Shown here piece by piece: positions 1,084 to 58,271 of a DNA stretch of 64,000 nucleotides (its first letter is position 1; each line of letters opens with the position of its first letter). A program made the translations under genes and the position numbers. Origin of the DNA: a bacterium (lineage in GTDB: Bacteria; Bacteroidota; Ignavibacteria; Kapaibacteriales; Kapaibacteriaceae). The stretch covers positions 64,787 to 128,786 of the forward strand of contig JAWXBR010000011.1 in the NCBI GenBank assembly GCA_034440235.1. The letters are read 5' to 3'. Below the pieces are notes generated by a model that worked only from the letters and a program-made list of their open reading frames with translations, was not told the DNA's origin and made no database searches.

Positions 1084-1512
1084 ATGAGTGACGGATTACA
1101 TAACTCAACACGCGCACCCGAACCTGTTGGGGCATATCCGCATGCACGGCGTGTTGGAAACCTACTGTTCCTGAGTGGTGTTGGACCACGTCAGCGAGGC
1201 ACGAAACAGATTCCTGGGGTGACGTTAACTGATGATGATGAAATCGAATCGTATGACATCACGGCGCAGACACTAAGTGTGTTTGCAAACGTGAAGGCAA
1301 TTCTCGAGGATGCAGGATCGACGTGGGAGAGTATTGTAGATGTAACAGTGTTTCTAACTGATATGAAACGTGATTTTAACGTTTTCAACAATCTGTATGC
1401 AGCACATTTCGAGCACGTTCAAGCGTGCCGCACAACCATTGAAGTCGGTGCATTGCCAACGCCTATTGCTGTTGAGCTAAAAGTCATCGCTACGATCGGG
1501 ACCCAACCATGA
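1084..1512 (+). CDS. RidA/YjgF/L-PSP family protein (reactive enamine/imine deaminase)
   Basis: 142 aa with typical RidA signature and length. It sits immediately downstream of the ALDH gene. Its stop overlaps the next start (ATGA). Confidence 0.75.
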   Translation: MSDGLHNSTRAPEPVGAYPHARRVGNLLFLSGVGPRQRGTKQIPGVTLTDDDEIESYDITAQTLSVFANVKAILEDAGSTWESIVDVTVFLTDMKRDFNVFNNLYAAHFEHVQACRTTIEVGALPTPIAVELKVIATIGTQP

Positions 1513-4500
1513 ATAACAATTCGATGACTCGACCTTTCTTGCACACCTCTAAGAATAAAACTTTTTTAGTTGTTGTTTGTGTGGCACTTACGCTTGCTGC
1601 GACAGCAGTGCAAGCGCAGCCCCGTATCAGCTACATCATACCAGATATCGGTACAACGCGATTTGCGACGTATGTAGAGTTTATTGGTCCGTACAATACA
1701 ACCAGCAACTTCGGCACCGACGGATTCTACTCTAACAACCCGTCGGGTAGTGCCGTTCGTGTACGCCCCGCTCGAGTTGCTGACAGCGTATATGTCAAGA
1801 TCGGTCCGTGTGTTGTAAGCTGGAACGGCCGCATGGTCTCGACTCACATATTCGTTACACCTGCAGCTGCGCCGAACTCCGATGTATGGAGTTTATTGAA
1901 TGCGCAGTGGCGCATACCGCTTATCGTAGAAGTGAATGGCGTAGCATCTGCTGCAGACACCTTCTACATTGTACGTCCTTTTGCTTTTGGCGACCGACGT
2001 ACAGACACAAAGCGGATACTTGGTGATGGTCAGCTAGGACTTCGTTCTCGCCGTGGCGCAATGATTGTCGACAGCATGGTCCTTGCAGGCGGAGGATTGT
2101 ACACTGTTTCAACTGCTGACTGCGACCTGGGGACACCTGGTAACCAAGGTTACCTTCCTCTTGTGCTCATTACAGCGAAATCTGTTACAGGTGGTAGCGG
2201 TGCGAAGATTATACTAAGTGGTAATGGTGCTGACGCCGGGCCGGGCGGTGGTGGTGGTGGTGGTGGTTACGCTAACAAACCATTCTTCGGATCTGGCACC
2301 AAACGCGGTACGCCTGGTGGTGCAGGATTCACTGGTGGCGGTCCTGGTGGTTATAATGACAACTCTGGTGACGGTTCGAAACAGGCACCTGGTGCTGGCA
2401 CAGGTGACGTATTGCTGGCCAGCAGTACAAACGTCGACGGTAGCAAATCTCTGAATGGCACTCCAGGTGGCGAGTCTTTCTTCAGAATTTGGGAAAATGC
2501 TGGGGGTGGTACGGGGCATCCTTTTGGTAGATCAGGTATGGGTTGCGCGGGAACCTCATCGTGTGTTCCCATACCCGGACACGGAGGTGGCTCTGGCTAT
2601 CGCAATGGCGATCCGGGTGGTGGAGGTGGTTTCTTTGAAGACGGTGCTGGTGGACCGTTGCGTGGTGGCCTAGCACATGGCAATGATGTACTCGTGCCTC
2701 TTGCGGGGGGCAGCGGTGGCGCTAGTGGCAATCCAAACTCATATGATAACACTTCGGGCTTTGGTGGTGGTGGTGGTGGTGCACTATCATTTCATGCTGC
2801 ACGCATTGTCAATCTTGACATAGAAGCACATGGTGCCACCTCAAACCGAGAAGACACAAAGGGTGGAGGCGGGTCGGGAGGCGGCATTATTATTGGCACG
2901 CGTGTGAACGGTGGCTCGAGCGTGTTTCCACAAACGAATGGATTGGACGATCAGCCAAACTTTAATCGTGGTGGTGGTGGACGCAAACGTTACGATACGC
3001 CAATAAGCTTTACTCCTGCACCTCCGAGAGGTCCGTACTCTGATTCTTTAACAGCAGTTCTTCGCACTTTCTCGATTACAGGTGCAGGTGATGGACGTCC
3101 GATCGAGGTGTGGGTGCGTTCAGAATCGTCAACGTGGACGTTGAATACGACCATCACAGCGTTTTCGCCGAGCAATTCCTTCATCAATGCAACGATAACA
3201 CTGCCTGGTACGGACTCTATTTTCTATGTGATGTATGCGCAGCAAAGTGCTAACCCCTCAGGAGCACAGTATAGTGCAATTCCTTCGCATGTGTTATCAC
3301 AGTCGGCGTGGAATATTCTGCGAATCTTCGGACCGACAATAATTGATGCAGTACAAAATGTGGACCTAGGAGTTCGTAGGTGTCCGAATTCAGTGCTTAC
3401 AAAATCGATTACCATTTACAATAGAGGCGAATCGCCGCTAGAGGTTCGTACACCTACGTGGCTGAACAGTAACGGATTTCGCATCGTTTCGCCAACGGTG
3501 TTCCCCGACACAATTAAAGTGCGTGACTCTACGACCTACGTTATAGAGTATTCGCCTTTGCCTGGAGCTACTGGTGTAATAAATGACGTTCTGGTGCTGA
3601 GTAACAACGATCCTGTTTCTGCGCGCAGTCCGTATCGCATAAATGTGACGGCGACGGTCGAACGTATCGAACTGAACTATACCTATAAAGGTGAGGTGCG
3701 CGATACCATCGATCTTGGCGCGGTGTGTCTGGGAAGTGTAATTTCTGAAATAGTAACTATTACGAATATCGGTACGACGAGTACAACTGTGACCTCTGTG
3801 CGGTCGTTAAACCCAAGCGTAGTGAATGCCACGACGTCTGTTCCGGCATTGTTAGCAGTAGGTGGAACAACGACAATTCAGCTAGGCGGAAGTTTGCGTG
3901 CAGTGGGTGCGTCGATCGTACCAATTGTTGTGCTCGTTGCTGAATGTCCGCAACCAGACACGGTGTACGTGCGGTTTGTTGGTATTGAGCCTAACATGGT
4001 GCTCATTGGCACCACACAGTTTGCTGACGTGCGTGTTGGTCAGACACGTCAGGTTCTTGTCGAAATTAGAAATGACGGTTCGAGCGATTTGCGAATCGAT
4101 GCCCTGCCCCCTGTGGCAGCCCCCTTCAGAATTGTAAGTGCGGTACCTGCCCCACCAATGACACTCAAACCAGGCGCATCGACCATTGTGACATTTGAGT
4201 ATGCACCAACTGCCGTAGGCGATGATTCGGCGACGCTTGAGTTAGTCTCGACTGTTGTAGGTGGAAGTTGTGGTGATACGATTGTGATTGCGCTTGCCGG
4301 ACGAGGCATACAGGAAGCATTAGTGCTCGACAAAAACCAGATTGTCTTCGGAGATGTTCGTTCGTGCGAAACGGTTGTCGATAGTGTTCGCGTAACCAAT
4401 AATGGTACGGCGGACGTAGTTCTGTTGTATCCAGGGTTTTTGAACGGACCCGATGCGGCGTCGTTCAGCATAATTCTACAGCCCTTGGTCGACGACACTT

Positions 4501-6302
4501 TGAAGCCGGGTGAATCTGCGGTCTATGTTGTTCAGTTCAATGGTGGAGTTGCCAACGTTCGTGTGCATACTGCCATCCTGAGTGTTCGAACCTCGAGCAC
4601 TAGGCAGAGTCAGCTCGATGTACCCGTAAGCGCAAGTCGTATATCATTGGGCCTTACAGGTCCGGCTGCTACAGATCTAGGTACAGTCGCCGTCGGCGCA
4701 ACCACCTCGCAGATCGTAACGTTTACGAATACCACAACGACGACGCTTAACATTTCAAATGTCACTTCGGGCATTCCGGTGTTTTCAATCACACCAACCA
4801 CAGGTACGGTGGCTGCTGGTGGAACGATAGATTTTACGATCGTGTTTGCGCCGCAAGGAGAAGGTGCATTTGCCGCAACGATCTGGATTGTCACCGACGC
4901 GCCGTGTCGAGACTCGGTGATGCTCGTAACACGAGGTGTTGGAGCAGCAGGTTCTATTAGCGCACCAAATAGCGTGTATTTTGGCACGCTTACAGATTGT
5001 GAGCAGCGCCTTGACAGTGTTACGTATGTGAACACAAGCGTGGTGCCTGTAGATTTAATCGACGTGAACATTGTCGGTGTAGCCAATCAACTCTTCACAA
5101 TTGTAAATCCTGCAGCAGCCACCAATGTGACGCTACCACCGAGCGGTAGTGCGACGGTTTATATAAACTTCAACCCTCGTTCGTACGCCGATGGTGCACG
5201 CACGGCACAACTTGTTTTACGCGTTCGATTGAATAATCAACCTGTGCCTTTTGTAACAACACTTACCGGCACACGGCGCACATCATTGCCAAGTACGCCT
5301 GTAGAGGTTGCGTTTGGTAGCATCGATATTGGTGCATCGAGTATGCAGCTAGTATCAGTTGTGAATTCGACGGCAACACCGGTGCGCATTACAAATGTGT
5401 TTCTGCGCAACACATCGTTCGGTACGATATCGATTGTACCTGCACCCGTGCCCAAGACACTTGCACCTGGTGAGCGTTTTGATGTACAAGTGACGTATGC
5501 GCCTGTTGCCCAGCAGAACAATGTGGACAGTATTGTCATTGCTTTTGACCAACCATGTCAGGATGAGCGTGTGATTCCCGTTAGTGGCACCGGCCGCCTA
5601 AACGTAGAGATTTCTGTGATTTTGCCAAAACACACCATGGATCCGGCAAGTGATAGTGAGACTCTTCCCGTAAAGGCTAAGGTTGCTGTAGGTAGCATAA
5701 ACCTAACAGGTGGTACGCTTCACATGACGATGCGCTATACGTCTTCTGTGTTTGTTGTTCAGTCGATTTCGCGCGGTACAATTATTCGGAACGAAGTAAT
5801 TGGTGGTCAAACATTCGTAGAAATTGAGATAGCTAATCTCGACGCAACAACCACTGAGAGTGTGATTTTCGAATTGCGTGGACAGGCCACCATCGGTCCG
5901 ATCGATTCTACCGACTTTGTTATTACGGATGCTTTTCTGGATGCAGGTTTCGTGGCGCCGACGGTGCGCCGCGAAGATGGATACTTAAAGCTTGCAGTTT
6001 GTGAGGAAGGGGCTAATCCACGTCTCATCATGCGCGGAACGCCTATGTCAATCCGTGTTTCTCCGAACCCCGTTAGCGACAACCTGAACATCGCGGTTGA
6101 TCTGACGGAAAAGGGGATACATACAGTCGAAGTAATAACGTTGATGGGTGAAGTAGTGAACTCGATGACATTCAAAGCGGACGCCACAGGTGCCGCATTT
6201 GAGCACGATGTTGATACGCGGAACATTCCGGCCGGAGCATATCAGGTGGTTCTGCAGACGCCGACGCGTCGACGCGTAACGACGCTTTCAATCATTCATT
6301 GA
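1509..6302 (+). CDS. Giant secreted cell-surface protein (1597 aa). It has a signal peptide, a Gly-rich low-complexity region, about 8 Ig-like (choice-of-anchor-D/ASH-like) beta-sandwich repeats and a T9SS C-terminal sorting domain.
   Basis: The N-terminal signal peptide ends ...TLAATAVQAQ. A GGGGGGGG/PGG-rich stretch spans about aa 230-480. The repeated motif ...SV.V.N.G...L.I... occurs many times. The C-terminal roughly 80 aa (NIAVDL...GAYQVVLQTP...) match the T9SS CTD pattern. Confidence 0.75.
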   Translation: MNNNSMTRPFLHTSKNKTFLVVVCVALTLAATAVQAQPRISYIIPDIGTTRFATYVEFIGPYNTTSNFGTDGFYSNNPSGSAVRVRPARVADSVYVKIGPCVVSWNGRMVSTHIFVTPAAAPNSDVWSLLNAQWRIPLIVEVNGVASAADTFYIVRPFAFGDRRTDTKRILGDGQLGLRSRRGAMIVDSMVLAGGGLYTVSTADCDLGTPGNQGYLPLVLITAKSVTGGSGAKIILSGNGADAGPGGGGGGGGYANKPFFGSGTKRGTPGGAGFTGGGPGGYNDNSGDGSKQAPGAGTGDVLLASSTNVDGSKSLNGTPGGESFFRIWENAGGGTGHPFGRSGMGCAGTSSCVPIPGHGGGSGYRNGDPGGGGGFFEDGAGGPLRGGLAHGNDVLVPLAGGSGGASGNPNSYDNTSGFGGGGGGALSFHAARIVNLDIEAHGATSNREDTKGGGGSGGGIIIGTRVNGGSSVFPQTNGLDDQPNFNRGGGGRKRYDTPISFTPAPPRGPYSDSLTAVLRTFSITGAGDGRPIEVWVRSESSTWTLNTTITAFSPSNSFINATITLPGTDSIFYVMYAQQSANPSGAQYSAIPSHVLSQSAWNILRIFGPTIIDAVQNVDLGVRRCPNSVLTKSITIYNRGESPLEVRTPTWLNSNGFRIVSPTVFPDTIKVRDSTTYVIEYSPLPGATGVINDVLVLSNNDPVSARSPYRINVTATVERIELNYTYKGEVRDTIDLGAVCLGSVISEIVTITNIGTTSTTVTSVRSLNPSVVNATTSVPALLAVGGTTTIQLGGSLRAVGASIVPIVVLVAECPQPDTVYVRFVGIEPNMVLIGTTQFADVRVGQTRQVLVEIRNDGSSDLRIDALPPVAAPFRIVSAVPAPPMTLKPGASTIVTFEYAPTAVGDDSATLELVSTVVGGSCGDTIVIALAGRGIQEALVLDKNQIVFGDVRSCETVVDSVRVTNNGTADVVLLYPGFLNGPDAASFSIILQPLVDDTLKPGESAVYVVQFNGGVANVRVHTAILSVRTSSTRQSQLDVPVSASRISLGLTGPAATDLGTVAVGATTSQIVTFTNTTTTTLNISNVTSGIPVFSITPTTGTVAAGGTIDFTIVFAPQGEGAFAATIWIVTDAPCRDSVMLVTRGVGAAGSISAPNSVYFGTLTDCEQRLDSVTYVNTSVVPVDLIDVNIVGVANQLFTIVNPAAATNVTLPPSGSATVYINFNPRSYADGARTAQLVLRVRLNNQPVPFVTTLTGTRRTSLPSTPVEVAFGSIDIGASSMQLVSVVNSTATPVRITNVFLRNTSFGTISIVPAPVPKTLAPGERFDVQVTYAPVAQQNNVDSIVIAFDQPCQDERVIPVSGTGRLNVEISVILPKHTMDPASDSETLPVKAKVAVGSINLTGGTLHMTMRYTSSVFVVQSISRGTIIRNEVIGGQTFVEIEIANLDATTTESVIFELRGQATIGPIDSTDFVITDAFLDAGFVAPTVRREDGYLKLAVCEEGANPRLIMRGTPMSIRVSPNPVSDNLNIAVDLTEKGIHTVEVITLMGEVVNSMTFKADATGAAFEHDVDTRNIPAGAYQVVLQTPTRRRVTTLSIIH

Positions 6303-8533
6303 CATACATGCGGCTATACATGCAGAATCGTTGCGTTGCCTTTTCGATAACACGTGGTGTTGTCCTTTCGATAACTCGTTATGTTGTCTTGTTTATAACC
6401 ATAGTTATGATGGCGACCGTGTCATGGGCACAGTCTAGTCGTCTGAATGAGTCGACAGGGCAGCGAGAAGAACTTCGTTTTTTGGTCGGTGGGTACGGAG
6501 CGTTGAGCATTAACCTGCACTCAGCCCCCTTCGGCGCCTTACCGGGCATACCATCATGCTGTCCGGAGTTTAAAGACGCAAGCTCACTTAGCCCTTCGTT
6601 TGGTGCTCTTCTCGAAGTCCCATTAATGTCGAGTCTTCGCGGTCAGATTAGACTTGGATACACGTCAATCGGTGGCAACCTGACCATTGGAGAGGTGATT
6701 GGAAATGAGCCTGTGCTGGATGATGGGCCAGCTCCTACACAAGCACGAAGGGATGTAACCGTCGAGCACTTTCTCGGTGCACCACTTCCGATGATTGCGT
6801 TAGAGCCTACAGTTGGATGGCGTGCACTAGATGTAATCTGGCTGAATTTCGGAGTTCGCGCTGGATACCTGATAGGCAAGAACATGGAGCAGAAAGAAAC
6901 ACTGCTTCTGCCAGAGGGATACACGTTTATCGATGGGACTGCGGTTCGTAACGAGTATGCCGGACCCATACCAGAGGCGAATGCACTGCAGCTACACGCA
7001 GTATTTGCTTTAGGCTACGAGCTTACAACACGAAGCAATCTTTCAATCGTTCCTGAAGTCAGGTACTATCTTCCGCTGACAGCAGTTTCAAGTGTAGACT
7101 GGCGCGTTCAGTCGTTTCAGATTGGTGTTTCTGTGCGTTACGGTGTGTACACACCCATCGACCCTGTCATCATCCGCGACACGGTGTACAAACGCGATAC
7201 GGTTGTTGCGCAGACACCAGGTATTCAACAGGACCGAATTACGCTCAAATCGTCGTCGACAGACGAGAGTACCAGACGTGAAGGCGATGTTGAATATCAA
7301 ACAACGACAATTACCGAAGAGTATCTGCGCGAGACACCAAAACCATTTGTGGCAACAGTAAAAGTGGTTGCACTAGCGCGTGACAAGAACGGGATACTGC
7401 AGCCACTCGACTCAATTAGAATTGAAGAGCTCGACGTAATAGAGAGTTATCCGCTGTTACCACAAATTTTCTTTGCAGAAGGAAGTGCTGAGCTAACAGG
7501 CACAACGCAAGCTCGGTTGCAAGGCAACGAAGCGAACACGTTTAAAATCGCAGACTTAACGCGTGACCAGTTAGATGTGTATCGCAATCTTCTGAACACA
7601 GTTGGCGATCGCATGCGCAAGAATCCGGCCACAGAGCTCAATATTGTTGGCTGCACAAATAACAGTGGAATAGAACAAAGCAACAAAGAGTTGTCGAAGG
7701 CTCGTGCAGAAGCTGTTAAGCAGTATCTCGTGACGAATTTTGGCATCGCAGCATCACGCTTGAATGTCAGCACACGTCAACTTCCATCAAGTCCAGCCAA
7801 TCCTACAACTGCCGATGGCAAGCAGGAAAATCAACGTGTTGAACTTTCAAGTAATGACCTCGCGCTGTTTGAACCTGTTGAGTTTCGTGATCGCGATCTG
7901 AAGGTCACTCCAGCCGAAGTAATATTGCGTTCAACGGTTACAAATGGCGATGACGTTTCGGCGCACTCTGCCTCTGTCGCACAGCGGACAAATGAAATGC
8001 TGAGTGTCGATGGTTCAGGACTCCCAACAGATATTTCATGGCGCACAGATAACGACGCCTCTAGACCACGCCTCGACGCATCAGTAGTAGCAAAGGTTAG
8101 TGTCCGTAACGCACAAGGCCTCAGCTCCGAGGGCAGTGTAACAATGCCTGTCGACTACGCCACGCTAAAGCTCATCAAATCACGTCAGGAAGAAGGCAAA
8201 CTCATCGAGCGCTATTCTCTTATCGTATTCGAATACAACAGCGCCCAGCTCAATGCATCGAATCAGCGGCTGATGAATAAAATCAAGGAGCGTATTCAGC
8301 CCGATTCACGTGTTACGATCACAGGCTACGCAGACCGTCAGGGTATGTCAGACTATAATCGCGAATTGGCCCGTCGCCGATGCGTAGAGGCACAACGTGT
8401 TCTCGGCCTCAAAGACAGTCAGGTGACGCTCGAACCTATCGGAAGCGATCGTCTCATCTTCAATAACGACCTTCCCGAGGGACGCTCCTACTCACGTACT
8501 GTGCAGATTGAGATCCAGACGCCGATCCGCTAA
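6299..8533 (+). CDS. Outer-membrane beta-barrel protein with two C-terminal OmpA-like peptidoglycan-binding domains. The start codon is uncertain.
   Basis: The ORF track start is a TTG overlapping the upstream stop. A signal peptide (...VLFITIVMMATVSWAQS) lies about 30 codons in. The N-terminal half has alternating beta-strands. There are two OmpA-like modules (NIVGCTNNSG...AEAVKQYL and ITGYADRQGMSDYNRELARRRCVEAQRVL). Confidence 0.65.
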   Translation: MTYMRLYMQNRCVAFSITRGVVLSITRYVVLFITIVMMATVSWAQSSRLNESTGQREELRFLVGGYGALSINLHSAPFGALPGIPSCCPEFKDASSLSPSFGALLEVPLMSSLRGQIRLGYTSIGGNLTIGEVIGNEPVLDDGPAPTQARRDVTVEHFLGAPLPMIALEPTVGWRALDVIWLNFGVRAGYLIGKNMEQKETLLLPEGYTFIDGTAVRNEYAGPIPEANALQLHAVFALGYELTTRSNLSIVPEVRYYLPLTAVSSVDWRVQSFQIGVSVRYGVYTPIDPVIIRDTVYKRDTVVAQTPGIQQDRITLKSSSTDESTRREGDVEYQTTTITEEYLRETPKPFVATVKVVALARDKNGILQPLDSIRIEELDVIESYPLLPQIFFAEGSAELTGTTQARLQGNEANTFKIADLTRDQLDVYRNLLNTVGDRMRKNPATELNIVGCTNNSGIEQSNKELSKARAEAVKQYLVTNFGIAASRLNVSTRQLPSSPANPTTADGKQENQRVELSSNDLALFEPVEFRDRDLKVTPAEVILRSTVTNGDDVSAHSASVAQRTNEMLSVDGSGLPTDISWRTDNDASRPRLDASVVAKVSVRNAQGLSSEGSVTMPVDYATLKLIKSRQEEGKLIERYSLIVFEYNSAQLNASNQRLMNKIKERIQPDSRVTITGYADRQGMSDYNRELARRRCVEAQRVLGLKDSQVTLEPIGSDRLIFNNDLPEGRSYSRTVQIEIQTPIR

Positions 8534-10012: not shown

Positions 10013-11794
10013 TTGGTATTTTGCGACATGAACCATCTACTACGAGTAACCGCACTCCTACTGCTTCTATGCGTTGGATGCAAGAAGGAAGGTCGTCCAG
10101 AAGGCAGCCTACGTCCGGCCCAAGGCGGAAAGTATTACGGAGGCATCTTTCGAGTAAACGAAACCGGTGAACTCAGCTCGCTTGATCCTGTCCGCATCAA
10201 TGATGTTACCAGTGCACATATCGCACAGAACATCTATGACAATCTGTTGCAGTTCGACGAGCATCTTAGACTGCAGCCCGATCTGGCGCATCGATGGGAA
10301 GTTTCGGCGGACGGACTCGAGTACACCTATCATCTTCGGAACGATGTGTGGTTCCACGACAATCCGTGTTTCCCCGATGGCAAGGGTCGCAAGTTCACAG
10401 CACATGATGTGAAGTACTCGTTCACGCGTAATTGCGATGCACGTGCGAAGACGAAATCGTACGACTATTTCCGTGGCAAAGTCCAAGGTGTAGATGATTT
10501 CTATGAGGCATCGCGCAAGGTTGATGAAGAAAATCCAATGAAGGTGAAAGAGGTAACCGGCTTTATTGTAGAAAACGATACGACATTCAAAGTCAGATTA
10601 ACAGCCCCCTTTGCCCCTTTTGAAAATTATGTTGGCTTAACGGCAATGGGCATTCATTGTCGCGAAGCGGTTGAGAAGTATGGCGAGGACTACGGACAGA
10701 ATCCGGTGGGGACGGGTCCGTTCTCTTTTGTGCGCTGGCAGCCCGATCGAGATCTCACGCTTACTCGTAATTCGCGTTACTGGAAGTTCGATGAGGTCGG
10801 TAACAGACTGCCATTACTTGATGGCATCCGGTTTTCATTTCTCAAAGATGACAAACTTCAGTTGCTTGAGTTTGCAGCGGGTAACCTCGAAGAATCGTAT
10901 CGCATTGCGAATGAGTTTTTTGGTGACATCGTAGACGAGAATAAGAATCCGAAGGGAGTTTGGGCTAAGTACACACTGTTACACGTGCCCGCCATATCGA
11001 CGCAGTTCTATGGATTTCTCACAACGAGTAAAGAGTTCAACGACAAGCGTGTACGCCAAGCGTTCAACTATGCAGTTGATCGCAAACGCATTATCAAGTA
11101 TGTGTTGCGTGGCCAAGCGTATGGTCCGGCCGAACACGGCCTAGTACCGCCGTCCATGCCCGAATACCCAACGTCAACAGTCAAGGGATACTCGTTCGAT
11201 CCGTTGCTGGCAAAACGCCTGTTGGCGGAAGCAGGGTTTCCGAATGGCAAAGGGTTTCCGACAGTGACGTTGCAATTGAATTCGGGTGGGGGACGCAATG
11301 TCTCTGTCGCCGAAGCAGTACAGAACATGCTTATGGAGCACCTGAACGTGAAGGTTGAACTGCTCCAGGTCGAGTTTGCACAACATCTCGAGGCAATCGA
11401 TCATGGGCGAACTCCATTCTATAGGCTCGGTTGGGTTGGCGACTACCCAGATCCAGAAACCTTTCTAAATCTATACAATGGCAAACTGGTGCCTAAGGAC
11501 GGCGGTATAAGTCCGATCAACGCTGTACGCTACGTCAACCCGCGTTACGACGCAATGCTTCAGCGTGCTCTTGCTGAAACCGATCACACAAAGAGAATGA
11601 ACCTCTATCGTGATGCCGAGCAGATAGCCATCTCTGATGCGCCAATGTTGTTGCTGTTCAATGACGAAGACTACCGGTTCGTACAGCCTTATGTCCGCGA
11701 CTACCGCAACAACTCCATGGACCAGCGTCCGTACCGCTATATCTGGTTCGACCCCGCGGCTATACCTGCATTAAAAAAGGGACAACAGCTTTAG
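10013..11794 (+). CDS. ABC transporter substrate-binding protein, family 5 (peptide/nickel/oligopeptide-binding, OppA/DppA-like). Lipoprotein.
   Basis: Lipoprotein signal (LLLLCVGCKKEG). Family-5 SBP motifs are present (SLDPV..ND, NLL.FD, GTGPF...W) at the expected length of about 590 aa. Confidence 0.75.
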   Translation: MVFCDMNHLLRVTALLLLLCVGCKKEGRPEGSLRPAQGGKYYGGIFRVNETGELSSLDPVRINDVTSAHIAQNIYDNLLQFDEHLRLQPDLAHRWEVSADGLEYTYHLRNDVWFHDNPCFPDGKGRKFTAHDVKYSFTRNCDARAKTKSYDYFRGKVQGVDDFYEASRKVDEENPMKVKEVTGFIVENDTTFKVRLTAPFAPFENYVGLTAMGIHCREAVEKYGEDYGQNPVGTGPFSFVRWQPDRDLTLTRNSRYWKFDEVGNRLPLLDGIRFSFLKDDKLQLLEFAAGNLEESYRIANEFFGDIVDENKNPKGVWAKYTLLHVPAISTQFYGFLTTSKEFNDKRVRQAFNYAVDRKRIIKYVLRGQAYGPAEHGLVPPSMPEYPTSTVKGYSFDPLLAKRLLAEAGFPNGKGFPTVTLQLNSGGGRNVSVAEAVQNMLMEHLNVKVELLQVEFAQHLEAIDHGRTPFYRLGWVGDYPDPETFLNLYNGKLVPKDGGISPINAVRYVNPRYDAMLQRALAETDHTKRMNLYRDAEQIAISDAPMLLLFNDEDYRFVQPYVRDYRNNSMDQRPYRYIWFDPAAIPALKKGQQL

Positions 11795-11810
11795 GCCGTT
11801 GTCCCTTTTG
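11774..11810. terminator. Bidirectional rho-independent terminator hairpin between convergent genes
   Basis: AAGGGACAAC-loop-GTTGTCCCTT stem is flanked by an A-run on one side and a T-run on the other. It overlaps the stop codon of CDS 10013-11794. Confidence 0.6.
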
Positions 11811-11825
11811 ATTGAGTCTCTTATG

Positions 11826-12584
11826 TTAGCGTACGACCTGTAGACGTGTAACCATTACACCTGAGGAATGCAGCATTCGCACCATGTACGTACCGTTTGC
11901 AAGTGCATCGAGTTGTGCCGGCACAATCATTTGTCCCTGAGGCATGCCAGTTGCGAGCGTCGCAACAACATTGCCGTTAAGATCAATGATATCTAGTGAC
12001 GACGATGGATCGTAGGAAGGAACGTCTATCAAGACTTCCGCAACATCCATCGCTGGATTTGGCGCAACAGCTACGTAAGCAGCAACGTTCGGTGAAGTTT
12101 CACCTGCGATTGCTGAACCTTCTGAAGGAATATTGTCTTTTACGCGCACAGAATTCGTTTCACCGCCACCAGAGCAGTTTACCCATACGCAATAATAGAT
12201 GCTACACTTCACAACCTTGCCCGTTGGCAATACGTCGTAAACGTCAATCGTAAAGCAAACTGGGTCCCACCACAAATCCCACCAATCCTTCGCGCCACTT
12301 ACGCTCTGCTTCGGATTTTTGAACGGGTAGGTGTGGGTAGTGCCTTGCTGACCAGATTCGTAAATGCGAATGAAGTTTGTGCCAGGTTTTACGTAGTCAA
12401 ACTTGAAATTCACACGGTACTTTTCACGGCCCTGAGCGTCTTGACCGAGGCACTCAACGTCGTACGTCCCGACGTTAATACACGTTGGCACGCCGCCAGG
12501 CGCTGCTTGCACCGAAGGTACTGTATAGGCAACGAATCCACAGACCAAGAGCAGAGTTATAAAATGTTTCATGACTGTCCTCAA
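11826..12584 (-). CDS. Small secreted Cys-rich protein with T9SS C-terminal sorting domain (paralog family member 1)
   Basis: Signal peptide. Conserved module C..C..KF..VK.GTNFIRIY..G.QG.T.TYPFK...CFTIDVYDVLP.GKVVKCS. The CTD ends ...NGTYMVRMLHSSGVMVTRLQVVR. Confidence 0.7.
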   Translation of the reverse strand: MRTVMKHFITLLLVCGFVAYTVPSVQAAPGGVPTCINVGTYDVECLGQDAQGREKYRVNFKFDYVKPGTNFIRIYESGQQGTTHTYPFKNPKQSVSGAKDWWDLWWDPVCFTIDVYDVLPTGKVVKCSIYYCVWVNCSGGGETNSVRVKDNIPSEGSAIAGETSPNVAAYVAVAPNPAMDVAEVLIDVPSYDPSSSLDIIDLNGNVVATLATGMPQGQMIVPAQLDALANGTYMVRMLHSSGVMVTRLQVVR

Positions 12585-12626
12585 AATTGAAAGAAATTAG
12601 ACGAATCGAGTTAGAGTTCGTAAGGA

Positions 12627-13304
12627 TTATCGAACGATTTGAAGTTGCTGAACGACCATGCCGTCTACGTGGAGCATGCGTACCATGTATACTCCGTTAG
12701 AAAGGTTCGGAAGATCTGCTGGAATAACGGTCGTGCCTGCAGCCATACCAGTAGCAAGTGTTGCAACCATATTGCCCGTCATGTCAACGAGTTCAATCGC
12801 TGAATTAGGGTCATACGATGGCACAGCAACCGAGATGTTCACAACGTCCATTGCCGGATTCGGGGCAAGGGTTAAGGAAGGGGTCGTTGGCATTTCACCT
12901 GCCACAACGTCTTTTGCAAACTCGAAACCACAGAACACAGGAACGCAGACTTCCGACGAACACTTCACAACCTTGCCGTTTGGCAGTACGTCGTAGACAT
13001 CAATGGTAAAGCACTGTGGACCAAAGCCGCCGCTAGAAGAAACAGTCTGCGAAGAAGTCTTAAACGGATAGGTAAATGTTGAACCCTGACTTCGACCCTG
13101 GTAGATTCGAATAAAGTTTGTGCCTGCCTTAACAGCACTGAATTTAAAGTTGACTGCAAATCCACCGTTATAGTAGCAGTCAACGGTGGTAGTCACCTCA
13201 TTAGCCGTTATACAATCGTTAGGTGCTTGACTCCAAGCCGAGGCCTGAACCGAACAGCATAGGCCAATAATTGCGACCGCCAAAAGATTAACGACAAATT
13301 TCAT
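12627..13304 (-). CDS. Small secreted Cys-rich protein with T9SS C-terminal sorting domain (paralog family member 2)
   Basis: It shares near-identical motifs with 11826-12584 (TNFIRIY, TYPFK, CFTIDVYDVLPNGKVVKCS). The CTD ends ...NGVYMVRMLHVDGMVVQQLQIVR. Confidence 0.7.
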   Translation of the reverse strand: MKFVVNLLAVAIIGLCCSVQASAWSQAPNDCITANEVTTTVDCYYNGGFAVNFKFSAVKAGTNFIRIYQGRSQGSTFTYPFKTSSQTVSSSGGFGPQCFTIDVYDVLPNGKVVKCSSEVCVPVFCGFEFAKDVVAGEMPTTPSLTLAPNPAMDVVNISVAVPSYDPNSAIELVDMTGNMVATLATGMAAGTTVIPADLPNLSNGVYMVRMLHVDGMVVQQLQIVR

Positions 13305-13360
13305 AAACGATGCCTTTCTGAGACGTGAGAGAGAGGTTTGAATGGTGCGAACATAAACAA

Positions 13361-13390
13361 AAAGGGTGACCGATTAAGTCACCCCTTTTA
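13361..13390 (-). terminator. Rho-independent terminator hairpin
   Basis: GGGTGAC-CGATTAA-GTCACCC stem-loop is flanked by A-run and T-run. It lies downstream of CDS 13453-14661 on the minus strand. Confidence 0.55.
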
Positions 13391-13452
13391 CGTAATCCAC
13401 AGGCTGTGTTTTTGAGCCTAGCACACGGTGTGTTAAGGCCACGTTTTTGAGC

Positions 13453-14661
13453 CTAGCGCACGATGCGTATCGGCTCGCTTATCAGGCCACCCGTATGGCG
13501 AAGGCGCAACATGTATGTGCCAGAGGCCATTCCGTGAAGGTTTGCGTTAACGGTCGTCTGACCGGCCTTGAGTCCTGAAGCAATTGTCGCAACAACCTGC
13601 CCGTTTAGATCGACGATGTCAACCGATGCATTGGCATCGTCGTATGGCATCGAGAGAATAACGTCAGTTTCGTCTGTTGCAGGATTCGGCACCGAAACAA
13701 CACTTGCAGCGGTTAGAATTACTGCTTCGTTGAGCGTGTTTGTATTGTCCGTACTGCCCGCGTTTCCTAGGTTGATACCTTGGTTCGGACCACCAGTACG
13801 GCACTTGCGGATGATGCGATAGCAGATGACGGTATCACAGCGCAGCTCTGGACAAATCAGTACTGTGTATTTCACGCAGAACTTGATTGTATCAGTACAT
13901 TCTATAACACGACTCGATGTGCTGACCGTCGGACATGCTGGAGGAAGATTGATAAGGATTTCGAATCCACGCTTTGGATTAAAACGAACACATGGATCGA
14001 ATTTCCAGAGAGCAATATTGCCTTCGATGTGAGGTCCGTCTACACCCTTAATAGCAGCACGAGAGATTTCTGTACGAATCGGTTGCCATGCAGACCTTTC
14101 GGTGTTTGAACAAACGCGACGATGACTTGCATCGACAACTTCCATTTGAACTGCACCAACACCGAACGGAGAAAATCCTAGTGCGCCCGAGAGTATGATG
14201 TCTTCACCATTTGAAGCGAGGTGCGGACGTGCTTCGATAGACTTGCGCACGTCACTGCATTTTGGAGCACAACGTGGCAATTCAATACATTTTTCAACGC
14301 GACAAAGTTTGCGTCTTCCGTCTTCTGTCATGTTATAAACTGTAAATGTAAAGCAAGCCTTGAGTGAGTTGCCTACATGTACATAACGAAACACTTGTTC
14401 TTCATTTTCGAGTGGAAGTTTGTAGGTGGTCGTTCCTACATGTCCAGTTTCCGACGATATATAGAGTACATCGCCTTCTTTGTTAATGTCTGTTGCATGA
14501 AACTTGATGACATACCGAGGTCTGCCATCAGCGTTAAAACCCGCACACTCCGCAGTAATCGAGCGGAGACTGATGCAAGGCTGGTCTTCTTGTGCTTTGA
14601 CTGCCGCCGACATCGCGACGGCAAGACTACACAGTAACAGGGTTTTCACAACACGATTCAT
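13453..14661 (-). CDS. Secreted Cys-rich protein with T9SS C-terminal sorting domain (larger relative of the two small paralogs)
   Basis: Signal peptide. The N-terminal module has the same Cys spacing (C..C...Y.IKF...CFTFTVYN....C....C). There is an extra Cys-pair-rich middle region. The CTD ends ...SGTYMLRLRHTGGLISEPIRIVR. Confidence 0.65.
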   Translation of the reverse strand: MNRVVKTLLLCSLAVAMSAAVKAQEDQPCISLRSITAECAGFNADGRPRYVIKFHATDINKEGDVLYISSETGHVGTTTYKLPLENEEQVFRYVHVGNSLKACFTFTVYNMTEDGRRKLCRVEKCIELPRCAPKCSDVRKSIEARPHLASNGEDIILSGALGFSPFGVGAVQMEVVDASHRRVCSNTERSAWQPIRTEISRAAIKGVDGPHIEGNIALWKFDPCVRFNPKRGFEILINLPPACPTVSTSSRVIECTDTIKFCVKYTVLICPELRCDTVICYRIIRKCRTGGPNQGINLGNAGSTDNTNTLNEAVILTAASVVSVPNPATDETDVILSMPYDDANASVDIVDLNGQVVATIASGLKAGQTTVNANLHGMASGTYMLRLRHTGGLISEPIRIVR

Positions 14662-52737: not shown

Positions 52738-53856
52738 ATGACACGAAAACGCATTGTTCGCTGGACGATAATTATTGCTGTGCTCATTGCTGCCATCGTA
52801 GTGCTGAGGCTGGTTACGAGCAACAAGGACGGTGCCCAAGGTGGCGCGGGCGGCGCTTCAAAAGGACCTCCTGGGGGAGGCCCTTCTGGAGGAGGACCTT
52901 CAGGCGCACCACTGAAAGTTTCTGCAGTGGTTATCACCCCAAGCCCTTTTTCCGAGACCCTTTCCCTAACAGGATCGATAATGGCGAATGAGCGCATCGA
53001 GGTACGGAGCGAAGTGGGCGGACGTATTACGCGCATCGGATTTCAGGAAGGGGCGCGAGTACGCAAGGGGCAAGTGCTTATACAGATGGACGATGCGGAA
53101 TTGCGCGCGCGGTTCTCAAAACTCGGACGTCAGCTTGTGCTCGATACAGACAAACAGAAACGTTATGAGGCGTTAAAAAAAATCGACGGGGTGAGTCAGG
53201 AAGAACTCGATGTAATTGACGCGCAGGTCGACATCCGCCGCGCAGAAATCGAAGAGCTGCAGGCGCAAATGGCGAAGACATTAATACGTGCTGCGTTTTC
53301 GGGTCGCGCCGGACTTCGTGAAGTGAGTGTAGGCGCAGTGATAACACAATCGACGCTCATTACGACACTTGCCGACGACAACACATTAAAACTCGAGTAC
53401 ACAATTCCTGAGCGGTATGCAGCAGGCATTCGTGTTGGTGATAGGGTTACGTTTACTGTACGCGGACGTGGTGTAGACGAGCAACAAGTGGCAACGATCT
53501 ACGCTCTCGAACCCGGTGTCGACGCTGCATCACGCGCAGTACGCGTGCGTGCGCGCATTGCACACGGAAAGTCGGATGCTGCAATGATTCCGGGAATGTT
53601 TGCCGACGTAAAACTTACACTGTCGAATGTCAACGATGCACTCATGGTGCCTGCAGAAGCAGTGGTGCAGGACATGGAAGGAGCATCGGTACTTATTGTG
53701 CGCAACGGAAAGGTGCAGCCAACCAAGATTGAATTGGGCGGACGCACTCCGTCGCATGTGCGCGTTACAAGTGGCGTACATGCTGGCGACACCGTGCTTA
53801 CAAGCGGCTTGTTGATGGTCAAGAAAAACATGCCGGTGAATGCGGAGGTCCGTTGA
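52738..53856 (+). CDS. Efflux RND transporter periplasmic adaptor subunit (AcrA/MexA family)
   Basis: A TM anchor, a Gly/Pro-rich spacer, and the lipoyl, beta-barrel and MP domains of RND membrane fusion proteins. Confidence 0.8.
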   Translation: MTRKRIVRWTIIIAVLIAAIVVLRLVTSNKDGAQGGAGGASKGPPGGGPSGGGPSGAPLKVSAVVITPSPFSETLSLTGSIMANERIEVRSEVGGRITRIGFQEGARVRKGQVLIQMDDAELRARFSKLGRQLVLDTDKQKRYEALKKIDGVSQEELDVIDAQVDIRRAEIEELQAQMAKTLIRAAFSGRAGLREVSVGAVITQSTLITTLADDNTLKLEYTIPERYAAGIRVGDRVTFTVRGRGVDEQQVATIYALEPGVDAASRAVRVRARIAHGKSDAAMIPGMFADVKLTLSNVNDALMVPAEAVVQDMEGASVLIVRNGKVQPTKIELGGRTPSHVRVTSGVHAGDTVLTSGLLMVKKNMPVNAEVR

Positions 53857-56800
53857 ACCTCAGCACCCTCACCATCCACCGTCCCGTACTCAGCATCGTG
53901 CTGAGTACGCTTATCGTTCTGCTCGGTGTTGTTGGCTATCTGTTTCTCGGCGTTCGACAATTCCCGAACGTCGACCCGCCGAATATTTCCGTTACTACTA
54001 CCTACCCGGGTGCAAACGCAGACGTTATAGAGTCGCAGATAACACTTGTGCTCGAAGAATCGATTAACGGCATCGATGGTATTCGTTCGCTCACGTCGCA
54101 GTCATCGGACGGACGTTCTACTATAACAGTTGAATTTCAACTAGGTGAAGATCTAGAAGCCGCAGCGAACGATGTACGCGACCGCGTAGAACGTTCGAAA
54201 CGTAATCTGCCTCCTGATGTAGACCCGCCTGTAGTTGCGAAGGCCGATGCAAACAGCTTTATCATCGTAATGACTGTGCAGAGCGATGTGCGTCCGTTAA
54301 ACGCTCTCAGCGACTTCGCTGCAAACGTCCTGAAGGACCGCATGCAGACCATTGAAGGTGTAGGCAACATCATGATCTGGGGTGAACGCAAGTATGCCAT
54401 GCGCCTCGTGCTCGACCCGTCGAAGCTTGCGTCGTACCGCCTCACCACGACCGATGTGCGTCAGTCTTTACAACGCGAGAACGTCGATCTGCCAGCGGGA
54501 CGCCTCGAGGGCACGTCCACAGAGCTTTCCGTCCGAACGATCGGACGCATGTCGTCCGTCGAGGAATTCTCGAACCTCATCCTCCGCTCTGGCGCTGGCT
54601 CGACCGTGCGTGTACGCGACGTCGCACGTGTGTATCTCGGCGCAGAAAACGAACGCACCATTCTTAAACGCGATGGTGTTGCAATGGCCGGACTTGCCGT
54701 CACACCGCAACCCGGCGCAAATCAGGTTGACATTGCAGATGAATTCTATCGTCGGTACGAAGCGTTAAAGCAAACAGCACCCAAGGACATCACACTCGAC
54801 ATAGCGTTCGATAACACAAAGTTTATTCGTCGCGCAATTCTCGAAGTCGAAGAGACTCTTGCCATTGCGTTTGGACTTGTTGTCCTCATCATCTTCCTCT
54901 TTCTTCGATCGTGGCGCGCAACCATCATTCCCGTTGTTGCAATTCCTGTCTCGTTAATCTCCACGTTCTTCTTCATGTGGGTGTGTGGCTTCTCGATTAA
55001 CATTCTTACGCTGCTGGGCATTGTGCTAGCTACCGGACTTGTTGTAGACGATGCCATTGTTGTAATGGAAAACATTTTCCGTCGCATCGAAGAAGGCGAG
55101 TCACCCATGGAAGCGGGCGAGAAGGGGGCTTCGGAGATTTACTTCGCCGTTATCTCTACAACCATTACGCTTGCAGTTGTGTTTATTCCGGTGATTTTTC
55201 TGCCAGGTCTGACTGGACGTCTCTTCAGAGAATTTGGCGTTGTTGTAGCAACATCGGTTCTTGTATCTGCATTCGTTTCGTTAACACTCACTCCCATGAT
55301 GAGTGTTAAGCTACTGCGTCACACAGAAAAACAATCGTGGCTCATGCGAGTTACAGAACCCTTTTTCGTGTGGATGAACAGCACATACGCACGCACGCTT
55401 TCGTCGCTCATAAAGCGCCCCATCATTGCAGTACTTGCAATGGTCGCTTCGATTGTGCTTACGATTGTTATTGGCTCGCAACTAAAAAGCGAACTCGCTC
55501 CACTCGAAGACCGCAGCCTTTTGACAATTAATCTTACGGCACCAGAGGGCACGGGCTTCAATCGCATGGATGTCATCATTGACACGATGCAGGCACGCGT
55601 CTCGCGTGCTGTACCCGAGAAGGCATTGCTTCTGACCGTTACGTCACCTTCGTTCCAATCGAATGCGAGCAACACTGGCTTCGGACGCCTCGCACTTGTA
55701 GACCCAGACCAGCGCACACGCACACAAACGCAGATTGCACAAGCCATTGGCAAGGTAATGTCCACCAACACCGATGTACGTACGGCAATCATTCCCGAGC
55801 AAACGGTATCGACGGGCGGACGTGCGGGACAGCCCGTGCAGTTTGTGATTATGGCGAGTCAGCTTTCAGAGTTACGCGAAGTGTTGCCTGCCTTTATGGA
55901 TCGTGCCATGAAGCACTCGTCACTTGCAATGGCAGACGTCAATCTGAAATTCACAAAACCAGAACTCACTGTTAGTATCGATCGTGCACGTGCGCGCGAA
56001 CTCGGAGTTTCGGTGCTTGACATTGCAGATGCCATGCAGGCTGGACTTGCCGGACAGCGTTATGGATTTTTTGTCCGTGCAGGAAAACAATACCAGGTCA
56101 TCGGCGAATTCCAACGTGACTTGCGAAACACCCCAGACCGGTTGCGCGACCTACAAGTGCGCTCACAAGACGGCAGTATGATTTCGCTTGGTAGTCTTGT
56201 TACGCTCAAAGAACAAAGCACACCTCCGCAGTTATTCCGATTTAATCGCTCGGTTGCGGCTACGGTGTCCGCCGGACTTCCTCCGGGCAAAACCATTGGT
56301 GATGGTGTAAAGGCTATGCAAGAAATCGCAGCAGAGACATTGCCTTCGCACTACACTACTGCACTTACGGGCCCAGCCCGCGACTTCTCCGAAAGCTCCT
56401 CAAGCCTCGTCTACGCCTTCCTCATTGCACTTGCATTTGTGTACCTCATCCTTGCCGCACAATTCGAAAGTTTTGTAGATCCGTTTACAATCATGTTCAC
56501 CGTGCCCCTTGCGCTAGCCGGTGGAGTGCTCTCGTTATGGATCGGCGGCGAGACCCTTAACATCTTCTCGGAGATTGGTGCAATTGTGTTAATCGGACTC
56601 GTCACGAAAAACGGAATTCTTATTGTCGAGTTTGCGAACCAGAGGCGCGAAGCCGGACTCTCTGTCGTCGACGCTGCGCTCGACTCCGCATCAACCCGAT
56701 TTCGTCCGATCCTCATGACCTCCCTCGCCATGATCCTCGGCGCCTTACCCATCGCACTCTCCCTCGGCGCAGCATCTGGCAGTCGTGTCGGGTTAGGGGT

Positions 56801-58271
56801 CGTAATTGTAGGGGGCTTGCTTCTGGCTACATTCCTAACGCTGTACGTCATCCCCACGGTGTATGTGCTCATGTCGAAGCTCAAGCGCAAGAAAACACAC
56901 ACCCACGAATCAGCGGCAACAACACCAGATCCTGGTACACCAGGTGTTTCAGATTCTGCAATCAGTCGTGCAATAATAATTTTAGTTACAATAGGTGCTT
57001 TGCTGTTCGCGCCTACTTCGAGTGCGCAAGAAATTCTCAGTATGGATGATGCCGTTGGCATATCGATACAGCGCAACTACAGCATCCGCACGGCACGGCT
57101 AGACTCTTCGTCCGCCGCTCTCATGCAGGGTTCGCAGTACGCTCCATTTCTGCCAACGCTCAACCTAAATGCAACGGGTGCCCGTGGAAGCAACGACCTC
57201 TCGCAAAAGACTGTGTCGGGTGTTAATACAGAGCGCACAGGCGTTGGCTTTACGAACTTTAATGCAAATGCAACGCTGTCATGGACCGTTTTCGATGGCC
57301 TGAGCATGTTCGCCGAGAGAGACAGAGTAAACAGTCAGTCGCGTGCCGAATACGAACGTGTCCGTAGCAGAATGTCCTTCACCGTCGCCGACGTCATCAG
57401 TTCCTACGGCGCAATCGTCGCTACTCGCAGATCTATCGAACGCGCAACCACCACGCTCGACATCGCAGAACGTCGGTTCCAAATTCTTTCGCGCAGTCGC
57501 GATGCGGGTGCTGTTGCCGGCACCGACGTGTCGCAAGCAGAGATCGACCGCAACACCATACAAGCAATGCTCGTGCGCTCGCGTACCGACCTTGCAACAA
57601 CGTCGACATCCCTTAACGCAATGCTCGGAAGACAGTCCAGGCAGCCCCTTGCCATAGACACTGCGTTCGTTGTTCCCTCATTGCCATTGCTCGATTCACT
57701 CGAACGTGCTGCAGATGCACGCAACCCCGAAGTGCTCGCTGCAGAGCGTGACATCGAAGTTGCATCGGCATCGGTCCGTATGGCAGATGCTGCCTACATG
57801 CCCCGCGTAGCACTTAATGGTCAGTACCAATACACCAACAACAACACCGACGCCGGCTTCATTCTCGAGAACCGCACAAACGGTTGGAATGTAGGCTTCA
57901 CCGGAACGTGGAATTTGTTTAACGGCTTTTCAGACAAGTATCGTTCAGACGTTGCACGCGTCGACCTCGAAAGCAAACGCCTAACACTCGACGACATGCG
58001 TCTGCAAACACGCGCACGGTTAAGTCAGGCATACGCACGTTACGAGCAAGGCATAACACTGCAAACCCTCGAACGTGCCTCATTTATAGCCGCACAACGC
58101 AACGCAGAGGTCGCGCTCGAGAAACTTCGTCTTGGCACCATCCGCGACATCGAAGTACGTCAGACCCAGCTCACATTATTCGAAATAGGGGAGCGCCTCG
58201 CGCGCATCGAATACGAAACCCTCGTCGCAGCCACAGAAGCCATGCGATTGAGCGGGGCATTAGTTAGGTAA
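53853..58271 (+). CDS. RND efflux permease (AcrB/HAE1-like, about aa 1-1030) continuing in-frame, without a stop, into a TolC-like outer-membrane factor domain of about 430 aa preceded by a Met-less signal-peptide-like segment
   Basis: AcrB N-terminus (MNLSTLTIHRPVLSIVLS...) with 12 TM helices and two porter domains. After ...LMSKLKRKKTHTHESAATTPDPGTPGVSDSAIS comes RAIIILVTIGALLFAPTSSAQE, then OMF-type helix/strand repeats to the end. Confidence 0.7.
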   Translation: MNLSTLTIHRPVLSIVLSTLIVLLGVVGYLFLGVRQFPNVDPPNISVTTTYPGANADVIESQITLVLEESINGIDGIRSLTSQSSDGRSTITVEFQLGEDLEAAANDVRDRVERSKRNLPPDVDPPVVAKADANSFIIVMTVQSDVRPLNALSDFAANVLKDRMQTIEGVGNIMIWGERKYAMRLVLDPSKLASYRLTTTDVRQSLQRENVDLPAGRLEGTSTELSVRTIGRMSSVEEFSNLILRSGAGSTVRVRDVARVYLGAENERTILKRDGVAMAGLAVTPQPGANQVDIADEFYRRYEALKQTAPKDITLDIAFDNTKFIRRAILEVEETLAIAFGLVVLIIFLFLRSWRATIIPVVAIPVSLISTFFFMWVCGFSINILTLLGIVLATGLVVDDAIVVMENIFRRIEEGESPMEAGEKGASEIYFAVISTTITLAVVFIPVIFLPGLTGRLFREFGVVVATSVLVSAFVSLTLTPMMSVKLLRHTEKQSWLMRVTEPFFVWMNSTYARTLSSLIKRPIIAVLAMVASIVLTIVIGSQLKSELAPLEDRSLLTINLTAPEGTGFNRMDVIIDTMQARVSRAVPEKALLLTVTSPSFQSNASNTGFGRLALVDPDQRTRTQTQIAQAIGKVMSTNTDVRTAIIPEQTVSTGGRAGQPVQFVIMASQLSELREVLPAFMDRAMKHSSLAMADVNLKFTKPELTVSIDRARARELGVSVLDIADAMQAGLAGQRYGFFVRAGKQYQVIGEFQRDLRNTPDRLRDLQVRSQDGSMISLGSLVTLKEQSTPPQLFRFNRSVAATVSAGLPPGKTIGDGVKAMQEIAAETLPSHYTTALTGPARDFSESSSSLVYAFLIALAFVYLILAAQFESFVDPFTIMFTVPLALAGGVLSLWIGGETLNIFSEIGAIVLIGLVTKNGILIVEFANQRREAGLSVVDAALDSASTRFRPILMTSLAMILGALPIALSLGAASGSRVGLGVVIVGGLLLATFLTLYVIPTVYVLMSKLKRKKTHTHESAATTPDPGTPGVSDSAISRAIIILVTIGALLFAPTSSAQEILSMDDAVGISIQRNYSIRTARLDSSSAALMQGSQYAPFLPTLNLNATGARGSNDLSQKTVSGVNTERTGVGFTNFNANATLSWTVFDGLSMFAERDRVNSQSRAEYERVRSRMSFTVADVISSYGAIVATRRSIERATTTLDIAERRFQILSRSRDAGAVAGTDVSQAEIDRNTIQAMLVRSRTDLATTSTSLNAMLGRQSRQPLAIDTAFVVPSLPLLDSLERAADARNPEVLAAERDIEVASASVRMADAAYMPRVALNGQYQYTNNNTDAGFILENRTNGWNVGFTGTWNLFNGFSDKYRSDVARVDLESKRLTLDDMRLQTRARLSQAYARYEQGITLQTLERASFIAAQRNAEVALEKLRLGTIRDIEVRQTQLTLFEIGERLARIEYETLVAATEAMRLSGALVR

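Follow-up and report, generated by a model that had tools for sequence, protein, structure and literature searches.

A cysteine-rich, predicted immunoglobulin-like module shared by three adjacent genes for putative type IX secretion cargo in a Kapaibacteriaceae genome

Three adjacent genes in a bacterium of the family Kapaibacteriaceae (Bacteroidota; Ignavibacteria; Kapaibacteriales) encode small proteins that combine a signal peptide, a cysteine-rich module of about 110 residues with six Cys and a type IX secretion system (T9SS) sorting domain at the C-terminus (CTD). These genes, designated A, B and C, lie on the minus strand of a 64,000-nucleotide stretch of assembly GCA_034440235.1 (contig JAWXBR010000011.1, positions 64,787 to 128,786), referred to here as the window. 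The module represents a new sequence family that is predicted with high confidence to fold as a seven-stranded, two-sheet β-sandwich of the immunoglobulin (Ig)/fibronectin type III (FN3) kind. We propose, with a probability of about 0.55, that A, B and C are disulfide-stapled, Ig-like surface proteins secreted through the T9SS, a role in a surface coat or in binding being the best guess. Their coordinates in the window and their layouts are as follows; E-values are those against a hidden Markov model (HMM) of the family.

Gene A, 11826..12572, minus strand: 248 aa, NCBI MDZ4744871.1 (exact match), ATG at 12572; signal peptide, Ig-like Cys module, linker, T9SS type A CTD
Module of A, 12159..12503, minus strand: aa 24-138, 6 Cys, Trp-rich E-F loop DWWDLWW, E=3e-54
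CTD of A, 11829..12077, minus strand: aa 166-248
Gene B, 12627..13304, minus strand: 225 aa, MDZ4744872.1; layout as in A, with a short linker containing DVVAGE
Module of B, 12909..13235, minus strand: aa 24-132, E=3e-41
CTD of B, 12630..12875, minus strand: aa 144-225
Gene C, 13453..14661, minus strand: 402 aa, MDZ4744873.1, identical to family member P0003; signal peptide, module, extra 10-Cys domain, linker, CTD
Module of C, 14269..14592, minus strand: aa 24-131, diverged C-type, E=5e-39
C-specific middle domain, 13792..14268, minus strand: aa 132-290
CTD of C, 13456..13695, minus strand: aa 323-402

An alternative open reading frame (ORF) for gene A begins at a TTG and spans 11826..12584; the NCBI record uses the ATG at 12572. 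NCBI gives A, B and C the same title, "T9SS type A sorting domain-containing protein". Their CTDs score 24.3, 29.9 and 33.5 bits, respectively, against TIGR04183 (NCBIfam; cut-off 23). Those of B and C also pass PF18962 (Por_Secre_tail; cut-off 27) at 38.7 and 34.1 bits, with A slightly under at 23.3 bits, and in all three proteins the sorting domain runs to the final residue. Sec signal peptides, identified by eye from the sequence, consist of a basic N-terminus, a hydrophobic core and a small-x-small site, placed putatively at VQA/A in A, ASA/W in B and VKA/Q in C. A preliminary description of this DNA had proposed three neighbouring minus-strand genes, each with a signal peptide and a T9SS CTD; the ORFs listed above and the TIGR04183 scores, all above the cut-off, bear this out. 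In the gene A ortholog of a related assembly (L001; Logan assembly SRR15101028), an in-frame TAG is found at positions 445-447, which correspond to codon 22, inside the signal peptide. The same codon is CAA (Gln) in the gene A of the window, and the remainder of the L001 ortholog is intact; the TAG is either a sequencing error or the sign of a recent pseudogene.

With signal peptide and CTD removed, the modules of A and B are 60% identical (E=2e-30) and those of A and C 29% identical (E=2e-10). Paralogy of the three proteins therefore reaches past the sorting domain, as had been claimed. A shared motif that was attributed to all three (KF..VK.GTNFIRIY..QG.T.TYPFK...CFTIDVYDVLP.GKVVKCS..C) is present in A and B, but C has a diverged version only. 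The notion that these are chance ORFs, or that their similarity derives from a common CTD alone, is already refuted by the module-only comparisons, by purifying selection on the orthologs, by NCBI annotation of all three genes and by a confident fold prediction.

The module itself, comprising the N-terminal ~110 aa, had no match among 24,736 Pfam models or in NCBIfam, even at E≤1; the CTD alone was matched. A profile built from 14 family members returned only noise at E≤10 when compared with PDB sequences. No specific match to a lectin, carbohydrate-binding module (CBM), protease inhibitor or toxin was obtained with Pfam, NCBIfam, the PDB profile search or Foldseek searches of PDB and BFVD. 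Identity with a known family was thus ruled out on the Pfam, NCBIfam and PDB profile results, in keeping with the earlier remark that the module could not be placed in one. Of the two outcomes named there as fatal to the claim, a well-characterised domain matching the module and similarity restricted to the CTD, neither was observed.

AlphaFold2, supplied with a 12-sequence alignment, modelled the module of A with a per-residue confidence (pLDDT) of 90.1 and a predicted template-modelling (pTM) score of 0.81, all five models reaching at least 82.6. Predicted strands cover residues 9-21, 27-38, 44-49, 55-58, 66-72, 82-91 and 97-106, with a short helix at 74-79. The closest PDB structures identified by Foldseek are nanobody, FN3 and tencon domains, which are generic and weak matches (TM 0.37-0.42). 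A full-length predicted model resembles tandem FN3/Ig proteins, and its linker region has a pLDDT of <50. The claim of a new module consequently holds for the sequence family and not for the fold, since the predicted topology is that of a seven-stranded Ig/FN3-like sandwich.

Cysteines were compared across 18 modules. C1 and C4 are invariant, and C2 and C6 occur in every module except P0012, from which both are gone. A-, B- and C-type modules have both C3 and C5, apart from the A-type P0008, which has neither. Modules of the X-type, found in related assemblies (P0007, L003_X, P0010, L007_B and P0012), lack both C3 and C5, and P0007, L003_X, P0010 and L007_B gain Cys in the E-F loop as well as an additional Cys beside C6. 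In the predicted F-G hairpin, residue 83 is paired across the strands with residue 105 (83+105 = 91+97). C1/C4 and C2/C6 share a constant offset of 92, which is compatible with the first and last strands pairing in parallel. The way in which cysteines are gained and lost together, combined with the predicted strand geometry, supports a disulfide map of C1-C4, C2-C6 and C3-C5.

Within the module, strands C, F and G stand out as best conserved, along with the FG turn (NFIRIY; F.IDVYDVLPNGKVVKC), and conservation is lowest in the E strand, in the helix and in the E-F loop. This loop is rich in tryptophan in most A-type members and in L006_B, reading DWWDLWW in the gene A of the window, MFWWWG in L001, GWMWW in L002 and YWWEIFF in P0008. 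B, C and the large proteins considered below have no such Trp-rich loop.

Gene C holds ~160 extra residues (159 aa, residues 132-290) with 10 further cysteines. All 10 are kept in the C-type protein P0011 despite an overall identity of 37%, and this middle domain is the best-kept part of the C orthologs (75-77% identical). An origin as a duplicate of the module was rejected (hhalign probability 0.6%). No Pfam match was found in the region, and a word-indexed protein search returned nothing for it, which is a weak negative. Judged by its conservation, the insert is a separate 10-Cys domain. In a neighbour-joining tree of the modules, the C-type falls in one deep clade and the A, B, X and large-protein modules in the other. 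The C-type is the deepest branch, the most conserved and the sole type in the most distant syntenic genome (L008/L009). The module tree, together with the C-only locus in L008, suggests that the C-type architecture is old and that the short forms are derived or more dynamic. The third gene had been described as a member expanded with extra cysteine pairs; the 10 additional cysteines are there, but they belong to a distinct domain rather than to added pairs, and the proposed order of expansion is probably backwards.

Two D-T-x triplets occur in the middle domain of C, at aa 257-259 and 276-278 (within CTDTIKFC and RCDTVIC), and both are kept in P0011, as D-T-A and D-T-T. The O-glycosylation sequon of Bacteroidota is D-(S/T)-(A/I/L/V/M/T), and we take both triplets to fit it; A and B contain no such sequon.

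Among 1.84 billion representative proteins, searched exhaustively with the HMM, 13 matched at E≤1e-3. One of the 13, P0013, is a repeat-protein match over 24 profile positions and looks spurious; a taxon name is attached only to those from a Candidatus Kapaibacteriota metagenome-assembled genome (MAG). A scan of GTDB-species genomes detected a single locus, again in a Candidatus Kapaibacteriota MAG (JBKJNB010000031.1), a group that sits under Bacteroidota in NCBI taxonomy. We call the family rare on the basis of the exhaustive HMM search and not of the word-indexed protein search, which retrieved two module fragments only and is weak, since neither the proteins of the window nor most family members, all present in the collection, were returned. 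Locus L012 from a scan of metagenome contigs was discarded as a chance 15-aa match within a 67-codon stop-to-stop frame. In the window, a six-frame HMM search found A, B and C and no further copies of the module.

The array occupies one chromosomal position in every readable assembly, with orthologs at the locus in at least six of them. It is flanked on one side by feoAB and dinB (IMS family) and on the other by an SBP_bac_5 gene, an OmpA-family gene and a gene for a giant ASH/HYDIN-type Ig protein with a CTD of its own. A comparison of copy number across relatives, as suggested in the preliminary description, gave a range of 1 to 4 at this one locus.

Window: 3 copies (C, B, A)
L006: 4 copies (C, B, X, A)
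L007: 3 copies (C, B, X)
L003: at least 3 copies (B, X, A); the contig end interrupts the array
L001: at least 2 copies (B, A)
L008/L009, most distant: 1 copy (C-type P0011 alone)

The surroundings of the array are housekeeping genes without mobile elements, and the 64-kb window contains no T9SS machinery genes. A mobile-element, defence or operon context was rejected given these neighbours. The giant Ig-repeat protein (1597 aa in the window) and the OmpA-family protein that follows it, together at window positions 1509-8533, adjoin the array in all related assemblies, including L003, L007 and L008.

The module is not private to the trio, as it also occurs in SBBP, LamG/PKD and RCC1 proteins. 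P0005 (1212 aa), encoded in the same Kapaibacteriota MAG as L003, consists of DUF7948, seven SBBP propeller repeats, Ig-like domains, the module and a CTD. P0006 (NCBI MDZ4746425.1; 1025 aa), probably from the same MAG as the window, consists of LamG, four PKD-like domains, the module and a CTD. In both proteins the module is the last passenger domain, immediately N-terminal of the CTD. The RCC1-propeller protein P0009/P0016 (NCBI MDZ4746104.1; L004 276-2177) has the module as its final, C-terminal domain. CTDs associated with the module are 42-80% identical to that of A, with P0011 lower at 32%; for the CTDs of the giant ASH-Ig cargo encoded in the same genomes the figure is only 22-24%. A linker motif, (V/I)-A-G-E, is found in most A-, B- and X-type members and in P0006. 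Module, linker and their own CTD subtype thus behave as one portable, CTD-proximal unit.

Comparison of orthologs by the NG86 method gave ratios of nonsynonymous to synonymous substitution rates (dN/dS) of 0.06-0.21 for whole genes and, where dS could be estimated, 0.09-0.29 for the module, the C insert and the CTD. The only high value, 0.88 over 32 codons, is that of the A linker. By this measure the genes are real and constrained by purifying selection. Between paralogs dS is saturated, which indicates that the duplications are old. The trio had been portrayed as diversifying; ortholog ratios of 0.06-0.3 and saturated paralog dS give no support for this. Nor was there any sign of positive selection, every NG86 ratio, whole-gene or per-domain, lying below 1; the sequences are too few for site models of selection.

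These observations can be assembled into a working account. A Sec signal peptide would bring each protein into the periplasm, where the ~110-aa module would fold as a seven-stranded Ig/FN3-like sandwich with three disulfides. Bonds C1-C4 and C2-C6 would staple the first strand to the last, and C3-C5 would span the F-G hairpin. The type A CTD would then direct passage across the outer membrane and would probably be removed inside the flexible linker that bears (V/I)-A-G-E. In its mature form, a single domain for A and B and two domains for C, each protein would be displayed on the surface or released. The conserved C-F-G sheet could serve as a common interaction face, and the variable E-F loop could confer properties specific to each paralog. 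For the exposed domain we favour, as a best guess, a surface-coat or adhesion-type binding role, because conservation extends to the small genes themselves and because one sheet is conserved while one loop varies. The analysis shows that the genes are real and establishes their architecture, their homology, the predicted fold, the restricted distribution, the synteny and the behaviour of the cassette; the disulfide map, the site of cleavage, the location at the surface and the binding function are inferred.

Several observations weigh against this account. No gene for SprA/Sov, PorV, PorU or GldKLMN is present in the 64-kb window, and a working host T9SS is assumed because several CTD cargos are present; further CTD cargo in the same genomes, and the classification of a related MAG in Bacteroidota, lend indirect support. 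No Foldseek match to the module reached E≤1e-3 in PDB or BFVD (best E 3.8e-3), and with structural matches this weak the Ig/FN3 assignment depends on the AlphaFold2 topology. Three large proteins retain C5 but not C3, a misfit with simple C3-C5 pairing. In P0009/P0016, the only family member without a T9SS tag, a true stop comes straight after the module and the 229 nt downstream show no CTD remnant; the tie between module and T9SS is thus not a strict one. The housekeeping context of the locus indicates no ligand or partner, and the polar conserved residues R46 and D87 of the C-F-G face could be a salt bridge with a structural role and not part of a binding site.

Three other functions were considered for the module, and each is ranked below the coat or binding role because of the points against it. 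The module might be a spacer or secretion-competence domain, like the Ig superfamily (IgSF) domain of RgpB, for which a spacer or insulator function has been proposed (PMC4804311). The small proteins would then be cargo-less copies of the cassette with little function, and could be by-products of duplication or a shuffling reservoir for the large proteins. Such a function would suit a module that nearly always stands directly before the CTD, co-evolves with a dedicated CTD subtype and follows unrelated passenger domains in the large proteins. We nevertheless consider it unlikely, given that the small genes have been kept at their locus in at least six genomes under purifying selection (dN/dS 0.06-0.3) and that the C-type has a strongly conserved second domain of its own. 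Moreover, other CTD cargo of the same genomes is without the module, which shows that it is not needed for export.

The sandwich, with conserved aromatic and charged residues on one sheet, the Trp-rich loop of the A-type and the fusion to LamG and SBBP proteins, a type frequent among glycan-active surface proteins, could instead indicate a carbohydrate-binding (lectin- or CBM-like) or toxin-like effector domain, through which the trio would act on polysaccharides or other cells, as the preliminary description had suggested. This is doubtful, and slightly more so than a spacer function: neither sequence nor structure gives a match to lectin, CBM, toxin or inhibitor families, no immunity-like or glycan-utilisation genes adjoin the array, and the Trp-rich loop is missing from B, C and the large proteins. 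It is more improbable again that the trio are regulatory cargo resembling PorA, small CTD proteins that report T9SS status to a two-component system through the CTD or the module. A small T9SS cargo whose CTD activates PorXY-SigP signalling does have precedent (PMC12152298; PMC7712824), and A and B offer little beyond one small domain and their distinctive CTD subtype. Against this stand the three to four paralogs per genome, a cassette shared with large structural proteins, and the lack of any adjoining gene for a sensor kinase, response regulator or extracytoplasmic function (ECF) sigma factor; homology to PorA was not detected either, no search aimed at it having been made.

A more ambitious version of the surface-coat proposal, which we regard as speculative and unlikely, is that the module and its dedicated CTD subtype constitute a T9SS-dependent surface scaffold specific to Kapaibacteriota. 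The C-F-G face would dock module to module or to an outer-membrane partner, A, B and C would form a basal coat, and the SBBP, LamG and RCC1 proteins would plug into it; the Trp-rich E-F loop might contact lipopolysaccharide (LPS) or the membrane. If true, the logic of this scaffold would be cohesin/dockerin-like or S-layer-like.

Signals for transcription of the array were sought in the intergenic sequences, where two terminator-like hairpins were found.

After C, 13357-13391, minus strand: 14-15 bp stem followed by a U-run
After A, ~11769-11809, minus strand: 15 bp stem followed by U6; dG -23.7 kcal/mol, z -5.57

The convergent SBP_bac_5 gene ends at 11794, and the hairpin after A, which overlaps its final codons, may be a shared bidirectional terminator. 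The B-A spacer (42-54 nt) contains no terminator hairpin, its folding being no better than that of shuffled sequence. As hairpins follow C and A and none lies between B and A, the transcription units are probably C alone and B-A together. A terminator or promoter region of its own had been assigned to each gene; for terminators this holds for C and A, both of which are followed by a strong hairpin and a U-run, and not for B. A scan for the sigma-70 consensus gave no excess over shuffled sequence and no minus-strand site upstream of the genes, and is uninformative. In L001 a ~13-nt unit, attcattcgccta[a/g], is repeated in tandem about four times within the B-A spacer (~300-360), and the corresponding spacer of the window (12585-12626) contains about one diverged copy of that unit.

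Elsewhere in the window, at 53853-58271 on the plus strand, a single 1472-aa frame joins an AcrB-type resistance-nodulation-division (RND) pump (Pfam ACR_tran, aa 4-1007) to a TolC-like outer-membrane factor (OEP, aa 1280-1468). At the junction (...KLKRKKTHTHESAATTPDPGTPGVSDSAISRAIIILVTIGALLFAPTSSAQ/E) a segment like the signal peptide of the outer-membrane factor stays in frame. The joined frame may reflect a genuine fusion, the loss of a stop codon or an error of assembly.

With this module the catalogue of T9SS cargo gains an undescribed domain family that is restricted to one clade and covered by no Pfam or NCBIfam model. The correlated gain and loss of its cysteine pairs yields a testable disulfide map, and an array that keeps to one locus with 1-4 copies offers a small-scale model of how genes are born and lost. 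Practical consequences are modest, as the host is uncultured, nothing departs from known secretion biology and the family is small. An Ig-like domain, linker and CTD that shift jointly between surface proteins of small and very large size also provide a clean natural example that bears on how CTD-proximal domains aid T9SS processing, a question raised for RgpB.

Among known systems, A, B and C share with T9SS type A cargo (TIGR04183/PF18962) a signal peptide and a C-terminal sorting domain of ~80 aa; that family covers the tag alone, whereas their passenger module is unannotated and confined to one clade. The nearest structural neighbours of the module are FN3/Ig sandwiches (tencon, fibronectin type III), which it resembles in its predicted seven-strand, two-sheet topology. 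RbmA of Vibrio cholerae, a biofilm scaffold of two FnIII domains, is likewise a small secreted protein composed of two sandwich domains. These generic FN3/Ig domains, RbmA included, differ in having no sequence similarity to the module, no such Cys stapling pattern and no CTD, and the TM values are only 0.37-0.42. PorA of P. gingivalis, a small T9SS-exported cargo made up of a CTD and a short N-terminal part (PMC7712824; PMC12152298), is similar in being a small protein with little beyond the CTD; A, B and C, in contrast, form a multi-copy array, share their module with large surface proteins and have no regulatory gene context.

The nearest known architecture is the IgSF-linker-CTD tandem of the P. 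gingivalis gingipains RgpB and Kgp and of PPAD, in which an Ig-like seven-stranded sandwich directly precedes the T9SS CTD via a short flexible linker. The IgSF domain of RgpB has been proposed as a spacer or insulator with a role in processing, and linker length affects A-LPS attachment (PMC4804311). No homology to gingipains or PPAD was detected, as the PDB profile search gave noise and neither appears in the top 50 Foldseek matches; the module is therefore not a member of the gingipain IgSF, and the resemblance is one of architecture only. In the gingipains and PPAD the CTD is removed within the linker, the segment that is modelled here with pLDDT <50. The module differs from its gingipain counterpart in its three probable disulfides and its own CTD subtype, and in A and B it is the sole passenger domain.

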